Positions 3,708 to 14,060 are shown, counted from the stretch's first letter. The stretch is DNA of 40,051 bases from an uncultured Candidatus Saccharibacteria bacterium (GCA_964406145.1 CAYOQP010000007.1:1-40051); one strand, 5' to 3'. Made by a program: numbers and translations. The notes: generated by a model not told the origin, from the letters alone.

Positions 3708-5900
3708 TTATTTGATTGGCGGCCATTTTGCAACCATGACTGATGGGCCCAAATCTGTGTATATCTTTCGAAGCTCTTGCCAGACGGCCTCAGTCACAAA
3801 CGGCATAAAAGGATGAAGCATCACGATTGACTCGGAAAGAATCTTGATCAAAAGCTTGCTCGTATTCTCTCTGGTTTTTGCGTCTTCGATCTGGGGTTTG
3901 GATGCTTCTATATAAGTGTCGCAAAAATCATGCCAGAAATAGTGGTACAATTCCTCGCCAGCATGGGAAAAATTGTAAGCTTTAATATTCTTCTCGACGT
4001 TTTTAATGACCGACTGATGCTTTTTCCAGATAGCCTTGTCGGCGGCTGTGAATTTATTTTCATCAAAATTGAGATCGCTAATCTTAATATCTCCGACTGC
4101 ACCGGTTTGCAGGTCGCCATCGGTAACGCGCAAGAGAACAAATCTGGAGGCATTCCAGATCTTGTTGGAGAAATTGCGCATACCCTTGATCTTCTCCTCC
4201 GAGATGACAACATCGTTACCAGCGGTCGTGCCGAAAACTAGCGCCATACGGACAGCATCGGGACCATAAAGATCGGAAACACCAAGAGGATCAATGACAT
4301 TACCCTTTGATTTGCTCATTTTCTGGCGATCCTTGTCGCGAACCAAACCATGCAGATAAACATTTTCGAATGGAACTTTGTCATTGACGTAGAGCCCAAG
4401 CATGATCATGCGGGCAACCCAGAAGAATAATATGTCCCAACCCGTTTCCATGACAGTCGTCGGGTAAAATTTGTCGAAGTCTTGAGCTACTTTGCTTGTC
4501 TGCAAAGTCGCAAAAGGCCACTGACCAGAAGAAAACCAGGTATCAAACACATCAGAATCTTGAGTTAACTTCTTGGAATTACACTTTGGGCATTCTGTCG
4601 GCACTCCACCATCAGTGACTATCGATTCGCCACAATCGCAGTACCAAACCGGCAACTGGATTCCCCATACAATCTGTCGAGAGACGTTCCAATCGCGAAT
4701 ATTATTCATCCAATGTTTATAAATTTTCTCAAACTTTGGTGTGACAAATTTGGTATCGCCTTTTTTGACAGCCTCGATCGCATCCTTGGCCAAAGTCTTG
4801 CCAGATTTCGCACCTTTTTTGTTCACGGCGATGAACCACTGAGGTAAAACGCGTGGCTCGATAACAGTGTTACACTTGTAGCACTTGGCAACAGTGTGAA
4901 TATAATTGGCATCAATTTTTTCGATCAATCCTCCGTTCTGTAAATCCGCAACGACTTTTTCACGAGCTTCCTTAATCTTCATTCCTTTATACTCGCCAGC
5001 AATGTCATTCATGCGGCCAAATTGGTCAATCACTTGAATAATTTCTAAGTTTTGACGCTTGGCGACCTCAAAATCATTGGGATCATGAGCTGGAGTAATC
5101 TTGACGGCACCAGTGCCAAACTTGATATCAACCATTTCGTCAGCGATAACCGGAATTTCTCTGTCGGTCAAAGGCAGTGGGACATTTTTGCCGATCATAT
5201 GGCTATAGCGCTTGTCTTTAGGATTGACCGCTATAGCGACATCGCCAAACATCGTCTCCGGTCGGACTGTCGCAACAATGATTTCGCCATATTTAATATA
5301 GTAGAGTGGATCTGATAATTCTTCATGCTTAAGCTCTAGATCTGACAAAGAGGTCTGATGCTTCGTACACCAGTTAACCGGACGAACATCGCGATAGGCC
5401 AAGCCATCATCATGCAATTTCTTGAATGTCTGATAGACAGTCTTAATGATATCTGGATCAAGGGTAAATTTTCCCCTTGACCAATCGCAGGAAGCACCAA
5501 GACGCTTGAGCTGATCTTCCATAACTTGCTTATTTTTCTGAGTAAATTCAAAAGTTTCTTTATAAAGCTGATCGCGAGGAATTTCGAATCGATTGCGACC
5601 CTCTTTTTCAAGCTTCTTCTCGAAAACTACCTGCGTCTCGAAACCAGCGTGATCAGCACCGGGTAGCCACAAGGCGGCCTTACCACAAAGTCTAGCGTAT
5701 CGAGTCATAATATCTTCAATAGTCACAAATACTGCGTGACCGAGATGAAGCGAGCCATTGGCATTTGGTGGCGGCATGATGACACAAAAGGGCTCACCCT
5801 GAGGATTGATCTCCGGCTTGAAATAGCCAGCTTTTTCCCATTGGTCATAAATATTGGCTTCAAATTCTTGATGATTGTATGTTTTGGCAATTTCTTTCAT
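3708..5900 (-). CDS. valS: Valine--tRNA ligase (short form lacking the C-terminal coiled coil)
   Basis: PPPNANGSLHLGH (HIGH), DWNVSRQIVWG, DVFDTWFSS, KMSKS; 730 aa. Confidence 0.97.
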   Translation of the reverse strand: MKEIAKTYNHQEFEANIYDQWEKAGYFKPEINPQGEPFCVIMPPPNANGSLHLGHAVFVTIEDIMTRYARLCGKAALWLPGADHAGFETQVVFEKKLEKEGRNRFEIPRDQLYKETFEFTQKNKQVMEDQLKRLGASCDWSRGKFTLDPDIIKTVYQTFKKLHDDGLAYRDVRPVNWCTKHQTSLSDLELKHEELSDPLYYIKYGEIIVATVRPETMFGDVAIAVNPKDKRYSHMIGKNVPLPLTDREIPVIADEMVDIKFGTGAVKITPAHDPNDFEVAKRQNLEIIQVIDQFGRMNDIAGEYKGMKIKEAREKVVADLQNGGLIEKIDANYIHTVAKCYKCNTVIEPRVLPQWFIAVNKKGAKSGKTLAKDAIEAVKKGDTKFVTPKFEKIYKHWMNNIRDWNVSRQIVWGIQLPVWYCDCGESIVTDGGVPTECPKCNSKKLTQDSDVFDTWFSSGQWPFATLQTSKVAQDFDKFYPTTVMETGWDILFFWVARMIMLGLYVNDKVPFENVYLHGLVRDKDRQKMSKSKGNVIDPLGVSDLYGPDAVRMALVFGTTAGNDVVISEEKIKGMRNFSNKIWNASRFVLLRVTDGDLQTGAVGDIKISDLNFDENKFTAADKAIWKKHQSVIKNVEKNIKAYNFSHAGEELYHYFWHDFCDTYIEASKPQIEDAKTRENTSKLLIKILSESIVMLHPFMPFVTEAVWQELRKIYTDLGPSVMVAKWPPIK

Positions 5901-5982
5901 ATGTAATTTTTATACCAGAAATGTAAGGACAATTCTACTGAAGCCTTGTTTTATTTTAGTGGGATGTCTTTAATTAGAAAAT

Positions 5983-7365
5983 TTAGGCGAAATGACGCTT
6001 TTTTTCGATTTTTTCGAGATAGCTGATTCGCCACGCTATATCGTGAATAGCTTCCTTTTTGAGGGCGATAAAAGCATTTCTAGAAGTATAGAAATAATCC
6101 GAAGGAGAATCAGTCTTGAACATTGGCTTTCTGTCTCTATTTTCGCGGGTCATGATTGCGACTGGATAATCCTCGAAGCCAAGCTCCCAAAGAATCTGGC
6201 CCTCCTCCGACTCGTCAAATGTCATCATTTTGAGTATTTGATATTTAAGATTTTTCTTGATCCTACGATTGGGCTCCTCTTTGGGCTTAAAATAGTTGAC
6301 CGAATCTTCTAAGATCTTTTTCAGCGCATCAACCGGCGTCACCTTATTCTTGACCAATTGATTGATCACTTTTAGCCGCATCAGAGGACTGCCTTCCAAC
6401 CTTTCTGGTCGGCCATAATTCTTCAATGCCTGGCAAACCTCCTCGTCATTTACAACCGAAAGACCAGAAGAGACATTATAGATAAGATCATTAACAAACG
6501 TCGAAAACCAGTCGTAGAAAGAGTGGCTAAATATTACAAACATCATGATTAATATCACAAGAACATATGATCGAAAGTTTGCCTCAATTTCCGAAACCAA
6601 AAATGCTAACAAATAAATAATTATAATTAAAATTATTGATGCAGTTTTTATAAAAAATGCTTTATCGAATAATTGTTTTATGGAAATTAATAAGAAGTAT
6701 TTAACAATTGAATAAATAAATATTAAGAGAGAAATACTTATACCAGAAGAGTACAATAAATCTGTTGTATTTATGTAAAAATGATAAGAAAAGGCTACTA
6801 TTATGCCAGTGGCCAGAAGAAAAAAACCACTCAAACTTGGCAAAAAGTACTTCCAAAAATTTTCTTTGATTCGCAATATACAGTTCCAAATTCCAAATGA
6901 GACATACAGACAAACAAAAGTGATTGATGGTATTAGCATTACTCCGGGTTCGAATCCATCAATTCTACGAAAATCATTAAAACGAACACTGTTTTCCCGC
7001 AAGATTAACCCGCCCTTTATGTCGATAATATACAGAAAAATGACTGCCAAATAACCCAAAAACAACAGCGCTTTGTCGGAAGTGCTTATTTTTTTCTTAA
7101 TATAAAGACTAGCATGATAATAAAAAATCGGGGCGAAGAATATCGGCCAATCAGTAATTTTTTGCCAAATTGTATAGGATCTAACATCTGGCGACTGCAA
7201 AAGAATAGAATCGGTAAAAATTGTAATGCCGTATCCCACTATAATCGCAAAAGTTATCCATGATAATTTTTTATAAGGATCTTTTGATAATATATATGTG
7301 GCAACCCAGAGAAAAATAAATCCCAGAAAAAGTTCAAAATAATCCCTTATTGCAAGATTAATCAT
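5983..7365 (-). CDS. Multi-TM (HisKA_7TM-like) sensor fused to a cytoplasmic helical domain ending in a sigma4/HTH-like motif; putative one-component regulator
   Basis: About 9 hydrophobic segments in the first ~285 aa. The C-terminus 'ALKNY..PERLEGSPL...LKKILEDSV...KYQILK...QILWELGF...SRNAFIALKKEAIHDIA' resembles RinA/ArpU/sigma4-type HTH termini. SD GAGGAGG. Confidence 0.65.
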   Translation of the reverse strand: MINLAIRDYFELFLGFIFLWVATYILSKDPYKKLSWITFAIIVGYGITIFTDSILLQSPDVRSYTIWQKITDWPIFFAPIFYYHASLYIKKKISTSDKALLFLGYLAVIFLYIIDIKGGLILRENSVRFNDFRRIDGFEPGVMLIPSITFVCLYVSFGIWNCILRIKENFWKYFLPSLSGFFLLATGIIVAFSYHFYINTTDLLYSSGISISLLIFIYSIVKYFLLISIKQLFDKAFFIKTASIILIIIIYLLAFLVSEIEANFRSYVLVILIMMFVIFSHSFYDWFSTFVNDLIYNVSSGLSVVNDEEVCQALKNYGRPERLEGSPLMRLKVINQLVKNKVTPVDALKKILEDSVNYFKPKEEPNRRIKKNLKYQILKMMTFDESEEGQILWELGFEDYPVAIMTRENRDRKPMFKTDSPSDYFYTSRNAFIALKKEAIHDIAWRISYLEKIEKKRHFA

Positions 7366-7389
7366 CCATCCTCCTCATTCCGATTGCAA

Positions 7390-8361
7390 TTATTTGATAC
7401 TATTTAGTTTATCCAATGTTTCCATCTTTCTTATTATGAAATTCCCTTTTTTCAAGAGCTCTTTTTCATCATTTAACTTTTCTTCAATCCAAGTATCAAG
7501 CTCTTTAGTGGCAGCATTTTTCCCTAATAATTCTTGCGCAACAACCTTACCAGACAAGCAAGCGGCATATATGCCCTTGCCCGTTAAGCCGTTAGTAAGT
7601 CCGGCTGCATCACCAGCTAGAAATATATTCTTAAATTTATAACCCTTATAATCAAAATTAATTATAAAACCTTCAAACTTAGCAGTTGTTAAATCAACGC
7701 CAATTTTTTTAATCCATTTATCAAGATTTTTTCGGACATTCTTCATACATGAGCATGAGGAGTCTACGCATGCTCCGACTGAAGAGAAGTTCTTATTTGG
7801 AAATAACCAGGCATAACCCTTTTCAAATAAAGGCTCGTCGGCATATAGCTCAAATTTTTCGCAACAAGATCTGGTTATATATTGAACGGCCGAGAGATAT
7901 TTCTTCGTCGGTATGTTCAAGTACCGACGCACAATCGAATTAGCACCATCGGCGCCTATTAGATAATCAAAACAGAACTCTTCGCCCGTAGAAATAACGA
8001 CTGATTCCTGTTTTATCTCCTTAACTTTTGCTCCCAATTTTAGTTCAATATTAGACACACCAGATAGGCCAGCTACCCACTTTTTTATTAAATTTGGTCT
8101 ATCTATTGAGGATATTAAGCCTCGGCCAGCAGGCATCTGAATTTTTCGATTATTTGCACAAAGAAAAACTGGTTCAAGAGAGTAGTTCATTTCTAGCGGG
8201 GAAATAAACATCGTATCTTGTTTTGTGACCCCAGAGGCACAAACCTTTTGTCCAAAATCGGAATTTTTCTCCAAAATAAGAACATTAAAATCAGATCTTG
8301 CCAATTCTCTTGCACACGCAAGTCCTGCGAAAGAAGCACCGATTATGATAACTTTTTTCAT
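7390..8361 (-). CDS. Geranylgeranyl-reductase-family FAD-dependent oxidoreductase
   Basis: IIIGASFAG Rossmann motif, KVCASG (GGR PCG-like), IGADGANSIVR, GYAWLFP (YxWxFP), AGDAAG...TGKGI. Confidence 0.85.
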   Translation of the reverse strand: MKKVIIIGASFAGLACARELARSDFNVLILEKNSDFGQKVCASGVTKQDTMFISPLEMNYSLEPVFLCANNRKIQMPAGRGLISSIDRPNLIKKWVAGLSGVSNIELKLGAKVKEIKQESVVISTGEEFCFDYLIGADGANSIVRRYLNIPTKKYLSAVQYITRSCCEKFELYADEPLFEKGYAWLFPNKNFSSVGACVDSSCSCMKNVRKNLDKWIKKIGVDLTTAKFEGFIINFDYKGYKFKNIFLAGDAAGLTNGLTGKGIYAACLSGKVVAQELLGKNAATKELDTWIEEKLNDEKELLKKGNFIIRKMETLDKLNSIK

Positions 8362-8462
8362 ATTTAAAGATAGTTCCTTGTTTCAGAATTATAATATCAC
8401 CTATTTGGCACAAAAAACTACAGCTAAAAATCTAAAATATCAGCACATTAAAAAGATGAACA

Positions 8463-8491
8463 TTGCCTATAGCGATAAATCAATTTATAAT
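8463..8491 (+). promoter_or_regulatory. Sigma70 promoter, probably producing a leaderless ubiA-like mRNA
   Basis: TTGCCT-17 nt-TATAAT, then 6 nt to ATG 8498; no SD. Confidence 0.6.
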
Positions 8492-8497
8492 ATTATC

Positions 8498-9304
8498 ATG
8501 CAACATCATGGCAGAAAAATTTTTGAAATCCTAGAGATGTCTTTAACCACTTTTTGCGCACCTGCTACCGCACTGGCCCTATCAATTTTATTCGATCTGA
8601 GAATTTCTTGGCAATTTCTATTACTTATAACAATTTTGCCATTTATAATATATTTTTTTGATTATTTTGATGATGAAGGAATAAAGGAATTCAGATCTAG
8701 AAAACTCATAGTCTGGATTCTTGTGTTTCTAATTCTCATTTCTTTGTACATTGTTATCGTTTACAGCAATTTAACAACCTTACTGTTTTTTGCAATGCTT
8801 TTACTTCTTGGTATACTCTACCCGCTAATATTCAAAAAGATAACTCAAAAAATCGTGGGGTTTAAAGACTACTTTGTCGCATTAAATTGGAATTTTTTAA
8901 TTATATTTTATTTCTGTTTCTTTGGAATAAATTTGACCTCTGGATTACTTTTTATGTTAGTTTTTATTTTTATACGAGACATGATCAACGTAAATTATTG
9001 CGACATTAAAGACATACATCAAGACAAAAATATTGGACTTAAAACAATAGCAATGAGTCTGGGCAGAAAGAGAATTTTGCTACTAATACACTGGGGCAAT
9101 TTTTTAAGTATACTTATGTTGATCACTGGAATTTGGTTAAAAATTATTCCGATTCAATCAATATCTCTTCTAATACCGGTAATATTAATTTGGATGCTTA
9201 TTTTTCTTTCATCATTAAAGAACAAATTTAACACTTTCATCGTGGATCTAGAATATCCACTATGGTTAATTGTTATTATCTTGGGAAAGGTTCTGCTAAA
9301 ATGA
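8498..9304 (+). CDS. UbiA-family prenyltransferase
   Basis: Multi-TM protein; Asp motifs DYFDDE and DIKDIHQD followed by GLKT..LG; FKD in the central loop. Start moved from 8225 (overlaps the opposite gene) to 8498. Confidence 0.85.
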   Translation: MQHHGRKIFEILEMSLTTFCAPATALALSILFDLRISWQFLLLITILPFIIYFFDYFDDEGIKEFRSRKLIVWILVFLILISLYIVIVYSNLTTLLFFAMLLLLGILYPLIFKKITQKIVGFKDYFVALNWNFLIIFYFCFFGINLTSGLLFMLVFIFIRDMINVNYCDIKDIHQDKNIGLKTIAMSLGRKRILLLIHWGNFLSILMLITGIWLKIIPIQSISLLIPVILIWMLIFLSSLKNKFNTFIVDLEYPLWLIVIILGKVLLK

Positions 9305-10968
9305 GTGTCGACCTGAACACAATAAAAGAATTGTTCCTTGTTGTTGTAATAATCCTCTCCCTTGTCTTGGGATTATCAATTTTATTGGCGAACAGGCAAT
9401 CAAAAAAACATATCTTTTTCTTTTTATCTTGCGTTTCTATGATTTTTTGGGTGACATTTGGTGATATAATTTATATTGAAGCATTCAGAAATTATCTAAC
9501 ACCCATAGGCAGAGCCAACCTTTTATCTGTAGCGCTTTTTTTGGTTTTTATACATGGATTTGTCGCCAACTATCCCGAAGATCAAGCAAAATGGAGAAAG
9601 ATTGATATTGTCTACATGGCGGCAGGAATATTATTGGCAATTATTACCTCTTTTTCCCCTTTTGTAGTAAAAGAGATCAGATTAAGCGGCAGCGACAGAA
9701 TATGGGATATGGGATTAATGATGTACCCTTATTATGCTTACGCAATATCTACAACATTTATTGTCGTGGCCAGATTACTTCGAAGATATGTCGGATCTTC
9801 CGATATTGACAAAATAAAAATTCGATACTTCTTTAGCGGTCTTTTAATTTTGGGGTTGTCAAATATTGTTTTTAACGTACTGGTACCATTATTTTTCTCA
9901 AATGATGGCCTTTATTGGTTGGGAGATTTCTCCTTAATATTTCTCCTTGCATTTACAGGTTATGCGATAGTCAAATATCGAGCATTCAATATCAAATTAA
10001 TTGCTACTGAAACTATTGTAATAGTCCTTTCAATTTTGCTCTTGGTAGAAAGTTTTACATTCAATAACAATTCGACTGAGTTTGTTCTGAAACTATTAGT
10101 ATGGATAATAGCAACATATGCTGGTTTACAGCTCGTTAAAAGTGTCCGCAAGGAAATTGAGCAGAAAGAAAAATTAGCGGCTCTTTCCAAGGAGCTTGAG
10201 AAGGCCAACCTCCATCTAAAGGAGATTGATAAGCTCAAGGACGACTTCTTGTCCATGGCATCGCACGAGCTTAATACTCCTATCGCCGCTATCGAAGGCT
10301 ACCTATCAATGATTCTTCAAGAAGGTATCGGCGGTAAGATTCCAGCAAAAACCCGCGAATATCTCGAAAGCGTCTTTCTCTCATCACAAAGATTGGCCCA
10401 CTTGGTTAAGGACTTACTTAATGTTTCTCGTATCGAGTCTGGGCGTATCCATATTATTTATGAGCAGAAACAAGTCGAAGATATTATCGATCAAGCCATC
10501 ATGGAAGTGATGTCCAAGGCGCGAGAAGCAAAACATACACTGACTTTCGTGAAGCCAAAGAAGAAAATGCCGATGACATGGATAGACGTCACTAGAATCA
10601 CTGAGATACTGATTAATATTATGGGAAATTCGATCAAGTACACGCCCAATGGTGGTAAGATCACTGTAAAATGTGTTAATGATGACGAAAAAATTGTTGT
10701 TTCGGTCGAAGATAACGGTAAGGGTATCCCGAAAGAGCGAGCCAAGGCTGTCTTTGAGAAATTCACACAGGTTGATGTCATGAAAGATGAAGTCAAGGGC
10801 ACAGGATTGGGCATGTACATAGCTAAAAAGTTCATCGAGCTGATGCACGGCAAAATCTGGTTCAAGTCCGATGGTGCTGGCAAAGGTTCCACATTTTATT
10901 TTTCTCTTCCAATTCTTAAAAACAAACCGTTCGATCCTCACGAAGGTGAAGACGCAGTCTTGCATTAA
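9301..10968 (+). CDS. Sensor histidine kinase with N-terminal HisKA_7TM-like domain
   Basis: Multi-TM N-terminus; H-box FLSMASHELNTP, N-box NIMGNSIKY, G1 DNGKGI, F-box VFEKF, G2 GTGLG. ATG at 9301 overlaps the ubiA stop (ATGA). Confidence 0.93.
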   Translation: MSVDLNTIKELFLVVVIILSLVLGLSILLANRQSKKHIFFFLSCVSMIFWVTFGDIIYIEAFRNYLTPIGRANLLSVALFLVFIHGFVANYPEDQAKWRKIDIVYMAAGILLAIITSFSPFVVKEIRLSGSDRIWDMGLMMYPYYAYAISTTFIVVARLLRRYVGSSDIDKIKIRYFFSGLLILGLSNIVFNVLVPLFFSNDGLYWLGDFSLIFLLAFTGYAIVKYRAFNIKLIATETIVIVLSILLLVESFTFNNNSTEFVLKLLVWIIATYAGLQLVKSVRKEIEQKEKLAALSKELEKANLHLKEIDKLKDDFLSMASHELNTPIAAIEGYLSMILQEGIGGKIPAKTREYLESVFLSSQRLAHLVKDLLNVSRIESGRIHIIYEQKQVEDIIDQAIMEVMSKAREAKHTLTFVKPKKKMPMTWIDVTRITEILINIMGNSIKYTPNGGKITVKCVNDDEKIVVSVEDNGKGIPKERAKAVFEKFTQVDVMKDEVKGTGLGMYIAKKFIELMHGKIWFKSDGAGKGSTFYFSLPILKNKPFDPHEGEDAVLH

Positions 10969-10970
10969 AA

Positions 10971-11417
10971 ATGATTAAAGATTTTTCGTTTGGCGTAATC
11001 CCCACATATAGAGATCCCAATACAGATCAGCTCCTTTTTCTATTGATCCATCACACCGGCGAGAGTGGCTATTGGGGTTTTCCCAAGGGTCACAAAGAGG
11101 GCAAGGAGACCAACATCGAGGCGGCAAGGAGAGAACTCGTGGAGGAAACAGGTATTTACGAAGTGAATATTATTGACGAGCCAGCACTTGAAGATAGATA
11201 TTTTTTCGAAAGAGATAAAATAAAATATGATAAAATCGCTACTTTTTATATCGGCACATTGGCCTCACAGCCAACCTTGGAGTTACAGCTAACAGAGATC
11301 GACGAAGCTGGGTGGTACGATTTTGAAACAGCTTATGAACTTCTGACTTTTGACACCTTAAAAGAAATAATAAAAAAAGCCAACCAGTGGCTTATCGATA
11401 ATAAAATATCTCTTTAA
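10971..11417 (+). CDS. NUDIX hydrolase (Ap4A-hydrolase-like)
   Basis: WGFPKGHKEGKETNIEAARRELVEETG Nudix box. Confidence 0.9.
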   Translation: MIKDFSFGVIPTYRDPNTDQLLFLLIHHTGESGYWGFPKGHKEGKETNIEAARRELVEETGIYEVNIIDEPALEDRYFFERDKIKYDKIATFYIGTLASQPTLELQLTEIDEAGWYDFETAYELLTFDTLKEIIKKANQWLIDNKISL

Positions 11418-12220
11418 AGCTTTATTTTGTCTAATTTATCCTCGCTCTTTGAGGATTTTTCTTTTGATACCGTACTCGCAAGAAAGATCAAAAGAAATCC
11501 GATTACCAAAGCAGAGATAAATTCGATAGTAAAATAGAATGATTCCTTAGATAGAGCAACGGAGATAGCCTTATTCAATCCATTGATCAACTTTGGATCC
11601 TCGAAAAACTGTATTTTGTTAGTAAAATTAGAAATATAAGTCGGGACGACTGAAGACAAGAGATATATTGCCAAGACCAATACAATCGAAATGCCGATTA
11701 AAGCCGAGCCAAGCCAGATAAATTTAGAGCGGAATCCGTCTGCCATAAGTAAAATAAGACCGAGAATAAAGATAGCCAGAGTCCCCAAAACGATCAATAT
11801 GAGATTGATGTTTTTCAAGACGACAAAAGCAAGATTATTGTTTAGATTGAGAGTTTTTTGAAAAGATAAATTTTTATCGCCATACTTAAAAATAATGGGG
11901 AAAGTCATGGTGTCGGAACCACTTTCGATGGCCAAGAAAACATTGTCAATCGTCTTGTCGATAACCGGCTGAACAGTTTTTCCATTAATATCCTGATTCA
12001 ATTTTTCAAAATTAGCACCTTCATCGACGGAAAGGCCTGATTTTTTGACAATATCGTCCTTGATATATGCGGCAGCAATATCGTAAAAATTCGCCTCCTT
12101 GATAACACCTTTGACTGAGTCTTTATTAATTAAAGCAACTTTTGTATTAAAAGCGACGAAGAAAATAGCGGCAATTGAGACAAATATAATTAAAAAGATT
12201 AAAGCAAAAAAATTTTTCAT
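11414..12220 (-). CDS. Hypothetical membrane protein
   Basis: N-terminal TM, soluble domain, three further TM segments. Confidence 0.75.
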   Translation of the reverse strand: MKNFFALIFLIIFVSIAAIFFVAFNTKVALINKDSVKGVIKEANFYDIAAAYIKDDIVKKSGLSVDEGANFEKLNQDINGKTVQPVIDKTIDNVFLAIESGSDTMTFPIIFKYGDKNLSFQKTLNLNNNLAFVVLKNINLILIVLGTLAIFILGLILLMADGFRSKFIWLGSALIGISIVLVLAIYLLSSVVPTYISNFTNKIQFFEDPKLINGLNKAISVALSKESFYFTIEFISALVIGFLLIFLASTVSKEKSSKSEDKLDKIKL

Positions 12221-12256
12221 TTGATTATATTATACACCAATTTAGATAGTGGTAAT

Positions 12257-12871
12257 CTAGGCCTGAAAAGTAATTCTCTTATATACTGCCCGAGTGGCCT
12301 CGACGTCTCGTTTGCAATATTCGGCAATTTCATCGACTTTTCCAGCCAGAAAATAATCGTAGACTTTGGAACCATCAATCCCCTCCTCCTTTGGCGACGT
12401 AATCCCCAAGGCAGTCGTCAAGCGATGCAAACTAACTCCCTGTGAGCCCCATTTTTCCCATTCTTTCATCGTGTCAAAAATTGGCTCAGAGCGATATCGA
12501 GCAAAACTGATTTCTCGACTTGGACGAATACCATGGATGATTGACCGCTTAAAGATAAAACGCAAATCAAATTCCATTAGATTGTGACCAACGAAAAGGT
12601 GCGCATCCTTAGCGATAGCCCAAAATTTGCGCAAAATTTCCTTTTCATCACCAACAAGGCATTCGGTTTTTTCATTATCAATAGCGTAACCAATACAAAT
12701 AATTCGGCCAAATTCTCCTTGAAATGAGGTATTACGAAAAAAATTCTCAAAATCAGATTCTTTTTTATCTTTTTGAGGATTTTTGGCTTTGGCATCTTGC
12801 CAAAGTTTCTTCAGCGTCGGAATGTCTTCGCCAGCCGCCGGGATTGTCTCGATGTCCAAAAATAATTTCAT
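12257..12871 (-). CDS. PolB-like/RNase H-fold 3'-5' exonuclease
   Basis: ExoI LDIET, ExoII GHNLMEFD, ExoIII YCKRDV; SD AAGGAG. Confidence 0.88.
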   Translation of the reverse strand: MKLFLDIETIPAAGEDIPTLKKLWQDAKAKNPQKDKKESDFENFFRNTSFQGEFGRIICIGYAIDNEKTECLVGDEKEILRKFWAIAKDAHLFVGHNLMEFDLRFIFKRSIIHGIRPSREISFARYRSEPIFDTMKEWEKWGSQGVSLHRLTTALGITSPKEEGIDGSKVYDYFLAGKVDEIAEYCKRDVEATRAVYKRITFQA

Positions 12872-12946
12872 TTTCTCCTTATTCTAGTCTGGATCTTAGT
12901 TTACCAAGAGATCGCATTTTTGCAAAGCAAAATATCGAATAAAACA

Positions 12947-12975
12947 TTGACATTTGAGCTCATTTGCGATATAAT
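12947..12975 (+). promoter_or_regulatory. Perfect sigma70 promoter of rnpB
   Basis: TTGACA-17 nt-TATAAT. Confidence 0.85.
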
Positions 12976-12981
12976 ATCTAA

Positions 12982-13306
12982 GCTTTAAGTAAAGCAGACG
13001 GCAGCCCTTTCGGGGGAGGAAAGTCCGGGCACCATAGAGTAGAACGCTCGTGAAAATGAGTGGGCAGTGATGTCCAAGAACAGCGCAACAGAAAATATAC
13101 CGCCTTGGCGCAAGTCGAGGTAAGGATGAAATCGTGAGGTAAGAGCTCACGCGCTCGCATGGCAACATGCGTTTGTGGCAAGCCTCGTTCGGTGCAAGTG
13201 AAGTGGACTAAATGTATTAATTCTCTACTCGAGAAGATACAAATAGTCTTCACGCTTAGATAGATTGTCGTCCTTGACAGAACCCGGCTTATGATTTACT
13301 TTTAGC
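12982..13306 (+). ncRNA. rnpB: RNase P RNA (bacterial type A, reduced)
   Basis: GAGGAAAGTCC and ACAGAACCCGGCTTA (P4 halves), ACAGAAA, GGTAAGAG; P1 AAGTAAA/TTTACTT; P6 GAGTA(13037-41)/TACTC(13226-30). End coordinates approximate. Confidence 0.96.
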
Positions 13307-13394: not shown

Positions 13395-13423
13395 TTGACA
13401 AAAAAGTATAATAATTATATAAT
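13395..13423 (+). promoter_or_regulatory. Perfect sigma70 promoter of the GC-rich orphan gene
   Basis: TTGACA-17 nt-TATAAT. Confidence 0.8.
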
Positions 13424-13482
13424 ATATAGCATCGCAGCTAGTTGTGCTGCACTTCCACTCCGTCCACAAAGGAGGACCCTCT

Positions 13483-13863
13483 ATGCGGAAGTTTTTCCTG
13501 TTTGCCGTGATGACGGCAATGCTCACTCTGGCGCTTGCCTGCATGGCGGCTGAGGCGGCACCCGTCGTCAAAACACCCACACAGGCGGCAATGACATGTG
13601 AAGGCACCTTCGGGTGCTTCTTCGGCTCGATGGAGAACGACAATTACAAGATCGAGGCTTCCTCGTTCGAGCCATTCGTGACCATCATCGCCGAGCCGAT
13701 GCCGCGCTCCTACTGGGCCGCCGACAAACCGACCATCCCCTTTCTGGGGCTGACCGTTCTCGGTCCCAAGGCCGTACCGCCACACGGCTGGTACGAAAGT
13801 TACGTCGTGATCGACGCCATCCCCCTCACAGAGGCGGAAATGCGCGCCATTCACGCGCCGTAA
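13483..13863 (+). CDS. GC-rich orphan secreted protein (126 aa)
   Basis: AAGGAGG SD before ATG 13483; Sec signal MRKFFLFAVMTAMLTLALACMAAEA; own promoter and 3' hairpin. Confidence 0.8.
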   Translation: MRKFFLFAVMTAMLTLALACMAAEAAPVVKTPTQAAMTCEGTFGCFFGSMENDNYKIEASSFEPFVTIIAEPMPRSYWAADKPTIPFLGLTVLGPKAVPPHGWYESYVVIDAIPLTEAEMRAIHAP

Positions 13864-13894
13864 CCACAATATCGCCAGAGCGAAAAGGATTTTC

Positions 13895-13921
13895 AGGCCG
13901 CTGCAAGGATGCAGCGGCTTT
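13895..13921 (+). terminator. Terminator-like hairpin after the orphan gene
   Basis: GCCGCTGCA-agga-TGCAGCGGC followed by TTT. Confidence 0.65.
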
Positions 13922-13986
13922 GGCATTTTACAACCTGATCTTATTGAAATAATGCGTATTTTAGGTTAAAATAAATCGAAATATGA

Positions 13987-14060
13987 TCGGGGATCGTCTA
14001 GTGGCAGGACAGCGGCCTTTGAAGCCGTGAACCATGGTTCGAATCCATGTCCCCGAGCCA
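13987..14060 (+). tRNA. tRNA-Gln (TTG), CCA encoded
   Basis: Acceptor TCGGGGA/TCCCCGA, anticodon arm GCGGC-CTTTGAA-GCCGT, T-arm CATGG-TTCGAAT-CCATG, discriminator G. Confidence 0.95.

Follow-up and report, generated by a model that had tools for sequence, protein, structure and literature searches.

A variable enzyme-and-sensor module between conserved receptor output domains at a locus of Berkelbacteria-like Patescibacteria

The window analyzed here is a 40,051-nt stretch of DNA from an uncultured Candidatus Saccharibacteria bacterium (GCA_964406145.1, CAYOQP010000007.1:1–40051), which is contig C7 of a genome of 761,667 nt in 30 contigs with 40.4% G+C. Our subject is the locus at positions 5983–10968, in which two membrane receptor genes enclose two enzyme genes. 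The left receptor gene (5983–7365, −) encodes a 460-aa protein to which we give the name MemX. Its N-terminal half, a multi-pass sensor of seven-transmembrane (7TM) type (6528–7365, −), is variable and forms the AT-rich left end of the block discussed below, and its C-terminal cytoplasmic "output" domain (approximately residues 280–460; 5983–6527, −) is the conserved left anchor. A GGR-like FAD flavoprotein is encoded 24 nt upstream on the same strand (7390–8361, −), and a divergent intergenic region of 94 nt (8362–8455) separates these two genes from the other two. The latter encode a UbiA-family membrane prenyltransferase (8456–9304, +; GC 0.29) and a histidine kinase, the start of which overlaps the UbiA stop (ATGA). 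The kinase comprises a variable 7TM sensor half (9301–10143, +) and a HisKA plus HATPase_c core (10144–10968, +) that is the conserved right anchor. Given the 24-nt spacing on one side and the ATGA overlap on the other, the locus consists of two divergent enzyme-then-membrane-receptor pairs. A sequence-only reading had named this gene content, which Pfam and NCBIfam scans bear out (GGR as GGR-like), and had proposed that an AT-rich block at 6540–10140 is a swappable specificity cassette. Sequence comparison supports the swappable-cassette reading in relatives and makes it plausible for this genome.

The kinase is a two-component kinase of the HisKA class, with matches to HisKA (62.7 bits, cut-off 26.9) and HATPase_c (98 bits, cut-off 26.4). 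Its nearest NCBIfam models (PnpS, WalK and PhoR) all scored under their cut-offs, and its N-terminus reached 27.6 bits against HisKA_7TM (PF16927), just below the cut-off of 28.6. The C-terminal domain of MemX had no sequence match in Pfam, NCBIfam or the PDB, and the best PDB-chain profile hit was a designed protein (E 0.94). A word-indexed search returned 116 MemX homologs of approximately 460 aa, all named "hypothetical protein" and mostly, where the organism is named, from Patescibacteria; the C-domain of MemX is at most 69% identical to theirs. A profile of this domain gave 75 matches among 1.84 billion representatives and lay at the C-terminus of those that were full length. HisKA_7TM was detected in 4 of 72 close and 5 of 10 distant MemX homologs (E 1e-9 to 5e-14) and not in MemX itself; three of the five distant bearers add a GAF domain. 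These detections justify referring to both genes as receptor genes. Alignment of the MemX family with the kinase by hhalign was collinear but weak (E 0.017, probability 2.7%), and ESM Atlas neighbors of the C-domain (TM 0.54–0.60), found in proteins with Response_reg, AAA_16 or TPR domains, serve as a lead only. As judged from its homologs, MemX is a predicted 7TM receptor of the kinase's sensor class in which an uncharacterized output domain of approximately 175 aa stands in the place of the kinase. Separately, the longest contigs of several MemX homologs are equal in length (among them P0007/P0010/P0095 and P0026/P0091/P0093): three at 22,575 nt, three at approximately 18,058 nt, and pairs at 8,929, 27,788, 12,816, 27,028, 20,511 and 3,544 nt. 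Two or three memX paralogs may thus lie on one contig in some genomes.

The genome of the window contains no paralog of memX and one full-length paralog of the kinase (C23, 33% identical). Paralogy was set aside as a cause of the patterns described below, as the kinases of the relatives share downstream neighbors and were treated as positional orthologs. The C23 locus (L135, 1366–4829) encodes a second 7TM kinase of the same design, preceded on its 5′ side by a 225-aa open reading frame (ORF; GC 0.52, no Pfam match) and followed by a single-domain response regulator, with a divergent GNAT acetyltransferase; it shows the second-largest within-gene step in third-codon-position G+C (GC3) in the genome.

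Of the two enzymes, the flavoprotein has a clear FAD-binding N-terminus (Pfam FAD_binding_3, 44.9 bits). Its scores for GGR_cat (21.2 bits, cut-off 27) and TIGR02032 (122.5 bits over 3–295 of 297, cut-off 158.8) are both below cut-off, and it is therefore named GGR-like only; it is 51% identical to the GGR protein of a related locus, L025. The prenyltransferase matches Pfam PF01040 (42.1 bits, cut-off 34.2) and no specific subfamily (ubiA_proteo gives 21.7 bits, cut-off 275). The genome (G000) has no second UbiA match, and its only polyprenyl synthetase is encoded on C11, with none in the block. UbiA genes beside orthologous kinases encode proteins 24–37% identical to that of the window, and UbiA was not found in 5 of the 10 relatives searched (genomes 94–98% complete), which argues against a housekeeping role and for an accessory one.

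The block stands out by composition. All nine hand counts of G+C per 60-nt line on which the sequence-only reading was based proved exact on recount. The G+C fraction is 0.325 in 6540–10140, versus 0.411 (5983–6539) and 0.428 (10141–10968) in the flanks and 0.392 in the window overall. This is the lowest-GC 3.6-kb stretch of the genome: none of 3305 sliding windows was as low, and the five lowest all lie at the locus. In 200-nt windows, the value falls from 0.43 (6300–6499) to 0.19 (6600–6799), then runs at 0.26–0.415, and reaches 0.45–0.47 at 10100–10399; a two-change-point fit to raw G+C placed the switches at 6470 and 10120. The description of an AT-rich block thus holds for the overall level and fails for uniformity, with windows in the GGR-like gene reaching 0.415.

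The step is also present in codon usage. The GC3 that each gene's amino acids would lead one to expect was calculated with the codon usage of 550 ORFs across the genome, leaving out those of the locus, and the significance of change points in the residual was assessed with 500 permutations per gene. In memX, the change point is at codon 279 (nt 6528), where the residual passes from −0.091 to +0.115, with 0 of 500 permutations as strong; in the kinase, it is at codon 281 (nt 10144), from −0.062 to +0.098, with 2 of 500 as strong. Neither valS, the left neighbor (residual +0.076), nor the GGR-like gene (−0.064) nor UbiA (−0.085) has a significant internal step (91, 218 and 466 of 500 permutations, respectively). 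Both change points agree with the earlier placement of the boundaries inside the two receptor genes, near their sensor/output junctions. Since the step persists after control for amino-acid composition, hydrophobic codons do not explain it; its loss under that control had been named in advance as a result that would speak against a cassette. Among 44 proteins of the genome with at least 100 aa each of soluble and membrane regions, the soluble-minus-membrane difference in GC3 residual has a mean of 0.010 (sd 0.063), with memX ranking 1st (0.170), the paralogous 7TM kinase of C23 2nd and the kinase 3rd (0.113). Moreover, GC3 per amino acid is approximately equal in membrane segments and elsewhere (Phe, 0.328 versus 0.311; Leu, 0.447 versus 0.437). 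A within-gene step in GC3 that survives control for amino acids can flag a recombination junction.

The locus was compared with those of Berkelbacteria-like Patescibacteria related at the family and order level, none of which belongs to the window's genus. The kinase set comprises 25 sequences including the window; outside it are the partial loci L021 and L031, the duplicate records L023, L030, L048, L050, L051 and L055 (which match L015, L017, L012 and L011), and loci with kinase halves less than 53% identical (L032–L047 and L060–L127). A NUDIX hydrolase, a membrane protein and an exonuclease recur downstream of the kinase (in synteny in L015, L016, L018, L020, L021, L024 and L025), and valS lies 6–12 kb upstream of it in L015–L018; these shared neighbors identify the kinase as a positional ortholog. 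Pairwise among the 25, the kinase halves are 49–100% identical and the sensor halves 14–61%; relative to the window, the 24 orthologs have kinase halves 53–82% and sensor halves 16–43% identical. MemX has the same division in family-level relatives, with the C-domain 59–68% identical versus 29–38% for the N-terminal half, and its gene, in divergent orientation, closes the module at the end away from the kinase in the window, L011, L012, L013 and L014, as well as in L133/L134, which have a more distant kinase. Between valS and the kinase, relatives differ both in the length of the region and in what it contains. This is the pattern of conserved flanks and a divergent or replaced middle that the sequence-only reading had predicted; neither uniform divergence nor the same enzyme content was found. 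The valS product itself, outside the cassette, is 50–74% identical in relatives, and the kinase core is more conserved than it in L015 (81% versus 68%), L017 (78% versus 51%) and L018 (76% versus 51%). Sensor kinases are not usually so conserved, which suggests that the pathway downstream is essential or under tight constraint.

Direct replacement is seen in pairs of closely related strains. L024 and L025, two metagenome contigs, share 99.49% identity over 10,983 nt. Upstream, by global alignment, the first 123 nt of L024 (the 5′ end of the GGR gene) are 100% identical; identity drops to 40–60% through the intergenic region, the UbiA gene and the sensor part of the kinase, and is back at 98% or more from approximately 30 nt before the start of the kinase half. 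At the protein level, the UbiA enzymes of this pair are 36% and the sensors 42% identical. Likewise, identity between L028 and L029 is 99.92% over 8,504 nt and approximately 40% upstream, and both encode intact kinases of 547 aa. The change points of these two pairs project to nt 10114 and 10174 of the window, within approximately 30 nt of its GC3 switch at 10144 and of the right boundary drawn from the sequence alone. In a more distant pair, L015/L026, the kinase halves are 96% and the sensors 32% identical, with the switch at nt 9931; two pairs without a swap, L028/L011 and L018/L054, served as controls and diverge evenly along the gene. Corresponding mosaics occur in MemX homologs: P0099 and P0102 are 97.6% identical in the C-terminal half and 35% in the N-terminal half, and P0055 and P0062 are 96% and 44% identical. 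These breaks fall at residues ~277–297 of the window protein (nt ~6475–6535), which agrees with the left boundary. The reverse is found in P0003/P0007 (N-terminal half 92%, C-terminal half 85%) and P0017/P0027 (93% and 82%), as would be expected of shared sensor alleles in different backgrounds. As for exchange of the whole block, allele replacement does occur in relatives, and the unit replaced in L024/L025 is smaller than proposed, comprising UbiA and the kinase sensor only. Because a breakpoint at the sensor/kinase junction keeps a working chimeric receptor, selection appears to act on what the receptor senses, and wholesale replacement even between 99.9%-identical strains argues for strong diversifying selection on what the cells make and sense.

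Turning to the genes upstream of the kinase, modules of at least six types were identified among the 25 loci. The most frequent (10 of 25: the window, L015, L022, L024–L027, L053, L056 and L059) contains UbiA with or without GGR, polyprenyl synthetase plus a UPF0047 protein, or radical SAM/SPASM proteins. Within it, L022, L053 and L056 form a sub-type with a divergent polyprenyl synthetase gene and one for a UPF0047 protein. L053 has a half-size membrane protein of SWEET/PQ-loop type (105 aa) just before UbiA (L053 6019–6336; 5498–5965 also cited), and ORFs of 89–92 aa occupy the matching place in L024, L026 and L059. Also beside a UbiA module, that of L015, lies an IS200-like transposase gene (Y1_Tnp; 12456–13130, −), the sole mobile-element gene adjoining any module. 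The second type pairs ThiF with a protein of approximately 510 aa, with or without an MFS transporter (7 of 25: L013, L016, L017, L018, L054, L057 and L058); the ~510-aa partner has weak similarity to PaaK ligases in two of the three proteins tested, and the transporter is present in L016 and L017. Two further loci combine ThiF with a FeeM-type N-acyl amino acid synthase (L014) or with unknown proteins (L049), and three encode a FabA-like protein and a methyltransferase (L011, L028 and L052). Single loci carry a class I/II aminotransferase (Aminotran_1_2; L020) or a 331-aa protein of no known family (L012), and for one kinase the upstream genes are not visible. The 285 nt upstream of the L029 kinase had no match among 14 module proteins. 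All classes of enzyme found at the locus are biosynthetic or tailoring.

Module type and enzyme identity follow the sensor lineage and not that of the kinase. Mean sensor identity is 33.6% within a module type and 23.1% between types, versus 66.3% and 64.7% for the kinase halves. On the maximum-likelihood sensor tree, module type changes six times, and none of 300 label shuffles required as few (shuffle mean 12.4); on the kinase tree it changes 11 times, and 53 of 300 shuffles did as well. Spearman correlations of enzyme identity with sensor identity are 0.51 for UbiA, 0.48 for ThiF and 0.67 for the PaaK-like protein, and with kinase identity −0.11, 0.18 and −0.19, respectively, the pairwise data points not being independent. 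Individual pairs illustrate this decoupling: in L018/L054, the enzymes (62–68%), sensor (61%) and kinase (62%) are similarly identical, and in L016/L018 the kinases are 81% identical with enzymes at 26–27% and sensors at 23%. Sensor alleles also cross genera, the sensors of L028 and L011 being 60% identical and their kinases 63%. In agreement with the prediction that separate phylogenies would differ, the sensor and output halves gave conflicting trees. In approximately unbiased (AU) tests on clades chosen after the identity matrix had been seen, sensor data rejected L028+L029 (p 0.0035) and L015+L026 (p 0.045), and kinase data rejected clades of the seven UbiA-linked rows (p 1.6e-86) and of the FabA/methyltransferase rows (p 5e-57).

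To the left of the locus, valS (3708–5900, −) encodes valine-tRNA ligase (NCBIfam NF004349, 927.5 bits, cut-off 704; TIGR00422, 879.4 bits, cut-off 612.1). On the right, the NUDIX hydrolase gene (10971–11417, +; Pfam NUDIX, 51.1 bits) is followed by those for the membrane protein (11414–12220) and a PolB-type exonuclease (12257–12871), then by class A RNase P RNA (12986–13306, +; 185 bits) and a tRNA (13987–14057, +), the latter being the tRNA nearest to the locus. Between these two RNA genes, approximately 500 nt (13400–13930) have a GC of 0.59–0.61 compared with 0.40 for the genome and contain a 162-aa ORF (−) with a GC3 residual of +0.197. A 189-aa ORF at 1443–2012 (+; GC 0.50) also has one of the highest GC3 residuals of the window (+0.165); like valS and the core of the kinase, it suggests that codons ending in G or C are a mark of conservation or high expression in this genome. 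Within 5850–11100, neither promoter-like sites (18, versus 19.4 expected from shuffles) nor terminators (3 versus 3.3) were in excess. A Pfam scan of 5983–10968 revealed no integrase or transposase, so that the locus does not qualify as a mobile island, and repeats at the boundaries were limited to short AT-rich chance matches. PADLOC found no defense system among the locus proteins, with generic matches only (FAD N-terminus, HATPase, NUDIX and DEDDh) and none for MemX or UbiA.

Taken together, we propose that Berkelbacteria-like Patescibacteria have a conserved receptor locus whose variable "specificity" module lies, in the window, at positions 6528–10143. Exchange of modules is very probably the origin of the block, and the full explanation, signaling included, seems to us slightly better than an even proposition. 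That the cells make a signal of their own and read it with a cognate sensor, a suggestion drawn from analogy, falls a little short of even. In this proposal, the two halves that face the cytoplasm, namely the C-domain of MemX and the HisKA/HATPase core, are conserved and vertically inherited; sensor halves and enzymes belong to an old allele pool and move between lineages by homologous recombination. Crossovers lie at the sensor/output junctions in relatives, and presumably did so in the ancestry of this genome. The enzymes may make or tailor a lipophilic small molecule, which here could be a prenylated compound made by UbiA, with a chain partly reduced by the GGR-like enzyme and a prenyl diphosphate supplied by the polyprenyl synthetase encoded on C11. 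The cognate 7TM domains would sense the product within the membrane, the kinase would act on an unlinked response regulator, and MemX on its own uncharacterized output domain. A swap of modules would then change the molecule made and sensed and leave the downstream wiring intact, in a pherotype-like manner. Extended to the whole family, the proposal becomes distinctly more tentative, possible rather than likely in our view: the kinase core and MemX C-domain might be fixed recombination anchors of a "dialect" locus, between which synthase-plus-sensor modules of unrelated chemistries are exchanged across strains and genera. Among those chemistries might be amino-ketones, N-acyl amino acids, acids that are adenylated or ligated, methylated derivatives of fatty acids and a prenylated lipid.

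A number of observations weigh against the proposal or narrow it. GC3 is lower in the sensor than in the kinase half in all 25 orthologs, three of whose kinase halves are near-duplicates (mean difference 0.14, or 0.17 at four-fold sites); the AT-richness is therefore systematic and no mark of recent foreign origin. No alternative allele was seen in the window's own species: contigs from runs X5–X8 are identical to it inside and outside the block, and as those covering 3708–12871 are short pieces at a depth of 2–4, polymorphism is neither shown nor excluded by them. One of these pieces spans 10016–10180, and there are no loose ends at 6.5 or 10.1 kb. L133 and L134, 98.3% identical over 16.5 kb, carry the same cassette throughout, with no replacement. 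Only one pair, L024/L025, has both edges visible, and there the 5′ end of GGR is already identical. Sensor and enzyme are not always coupled, as L016 and L017 have enzymes 54–74% identical and sensors only 26% identical; the choice of AU clades after inspection and the non-independence of the pairwise correlations count on the same side. On the signaling part, the genome has approximately four histidine kinase genes and five receiver domains, and none of the latter is on C7 (they lie on C2, C8, C10, C17 and C23); no ComX-like precursor was identified, small ORFs not having been searched systematically, and the idea of a signal dialect draws on analogy and on enzyme classes. As an observation in its own right, runs X5–X8 are freshwater or lake metagenomes from four further studies (2023–2025) that contain the same strain with the same cassette, which is hence widespread.

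The systematic GC3 difference also lends itself to an account with no cassette in this genome, in which the step is a by-product of fast in-place divergence, with weak codon selection in the membrane domains and strong selection for accurate translation in the conserved catalytic ones. The raised GC3 of conserved genes such as valS and the single allele seen for this species would fit. We consider this account improbable, as membrane regions genome-wide have no such GC3 deficit, point mutation cannot put 40–60% identity beside 99.5–99.9%, and sensor alleles are common to different genera (L028/L011). Moreover, GC3 in the kinase half is nearly the same at variable and invariant columns (0.432 versus 0.455), compared with 0.327 in the sensors. 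The effect is thus regional, not site-wise, and site-wise codon selection was rejected as the main cause of the step; the genome-wide membrane control, the strain pairs and the kinase-column GC3 together exclude a purely compositional explanation. A regional cause might be GC-biased conversion in the half that serves as recombination substrate or an AT-rich pool of exchanged halves. More improbable still, the mosaics of the strain pairs could be metagenome assembly chimeras joined through the conserved kinase half. The L024 and L029 contigs do begin inside or just beside the variable segment, and the evidence is at the level of contigs, not reads; however, kinase halves of different genera are only ~70–77% identical in DNA, too low for k-mer joins, and both members of each pair have intact kinase frames (547–566 aa). 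L024 is again 100% identical to L025 beyond the divergent segment, and the same mosaicism occurs in species-representative genomes (L015/L026) and in MemX proteins from other sources.

Other explanations accept the exchange and differ in its purpose. In one, the locus is a metabolite-responsive accessory regulon, whose sensors detect an external compound, for example from a host or the environment, that the enzymes process or detoxify, the two being swapped jointly through their shared substrate. The comparative data, with covariation of enzyme and sensor decoupled from the kinase core, fit this equally well, as does the accessory nature of UbiA, and two-component systems commonly lie beside the genes they regulate. 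We nevertheless judge it unlikely, given that the enzymes are of biosynthetic or tailoring classes (prenyltransferase, polyprenyl synthetase, ThiF-type, PaaK-like, FeeM, methyltransferases and radical SAM) and that the modules examined contain no uptake system or hydrolase, their sole transporter type being the MFS protein of L016 and L017. Rather less likely again is an envelope-variation island, in which the enzymes would alter membrane or surface lipids and the membrane halves of the receptors co-diversify under phage or host pressure, akin to O-antigen or capsule shuffling. The parts that vary are indeed only those embedded in or acting on the membrane (the two 7TM halves, UbiA and the GGR-like lipid reductase), no other part of the genome is as AT-rich as the block, flexible islands are often AT-rich, and the valS–kinase region is variable among relatives. 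Many modules, however, consist of soluble, non-lipid enzymes (ThiF, PaaK-like, aminotransferase, methyltransferase), glycosyltransferases and flippases are absent from the modules and defense systems from the PADLOC results, and a breakpoint exactly at the sensor/kinase junction points to selection on sensing.

The exchange of specificity modules would be of interest on several counts. Life attached to other cells, with few regulatory systems, is presumed for ultra-small Patescibacteria. If the family-wide reading is true, the locus would give the Candidate Phyla Radiation (CPR) its first example of chemical communication specific to kin, and would be the first known quorum-sensing locus whose alleles differ in signal class, not as variants of one signal. 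If the modules are signal–receptor pairs, they would provide a testable handle on cell–cell recognition in a group not yet culturable alone, and a natural library of matched enzyme–sensor pairs on one kinase chassis. We found no published description in the literature on signaling and kinases of Patescibacteria, CPR and Berkelbacteria, supplementary files being outside the scope of this search.

The closest parallel is the ComQXPA system of Bacillus subtilis and its relatives, which is diverse in pherotype (PMC4408185), with strains falling into communication groups. The likeness lies in a polymorphic block of modifying enzyme and kinase sensor beside a conserved kinase half, which is found in relatives of the window, whose own species has shown one allele, and in the UbiA-type modules of L022, L053 and L056, which carry a polyprenyl synthetase, the family of ComQ. 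A 2001 study by Tortosa reportedly found variation in comQ, comX and the stretch of comP encoding the N-terminus, and conservation of comA and the remainder of comP. Unlike ComQXPA, the window has UbiA and a GGR-like reductase in place of ComQ, with no polyprenyl_synt match in the block; it has no adjacent response regulator, and at its other side the block ends in a second receptor, MemX, whose output is not a kinase. Furthermore, its alleles differ in enzyme class and are not variants of one enzyme, and the host is a Patescibacterium with a 0.76-Mb genome. In the agr system of staphylococci, hypervariability extends over the genes for the signal and for its processing and into the sensor half of the kinase, and the adjoining kinase half is conserved. 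The present locus resembles this pattern in its variable segment of enzyme and sensor and its conserved kinase half; it differs in that no window gene matches the AgrB or AgrD families (Pfam), the genes are divergent, and the chemistry appears lipid- or small-molecule-like, not that of a thiolactone peptide. The pattern of variable enzyme and sensor with a conserved kinase, for which the sequence-only reading had invoked comQX-comP′ and agr, thus appears in relatives, both in the strain pairs and across the 25 kinases.

Resemblances to other signaling systems are confined to relatives of the window, where such enzyme classes are paired with a multi-pass kinase. By Pfam class only, the FabA-like protein and methyltransferase of L011, L028 and L052 recall the PhcB/PhcS arrangement of Ralstonia, in which PhcB is a methyltransferase, and the aminotransferase of L020 recalls the CqsA/CqsS pair of Vibrio, in which CqsA resembles class I/II aminotransferases. 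Together, the enzyme classes at the locus may recall four types of autoinducer synthase (ComQ, PhcB, CqsA and LuxI/FeeM-like), which we treat as a lead only. As in the general shuffling of kinase sensor domains, sensor and transmitter halves have different histories; unlike it, the exchange here is allelic, takes place at one syntenic locus, is repeated across genera and near-identical strains, and is tied to the neighboring enzymes. What sets the locus apart from the known systems is the combination of alleles that differ in enzyme class, a new output domain on the second receptor that bounds the block, and a host within the CPR.

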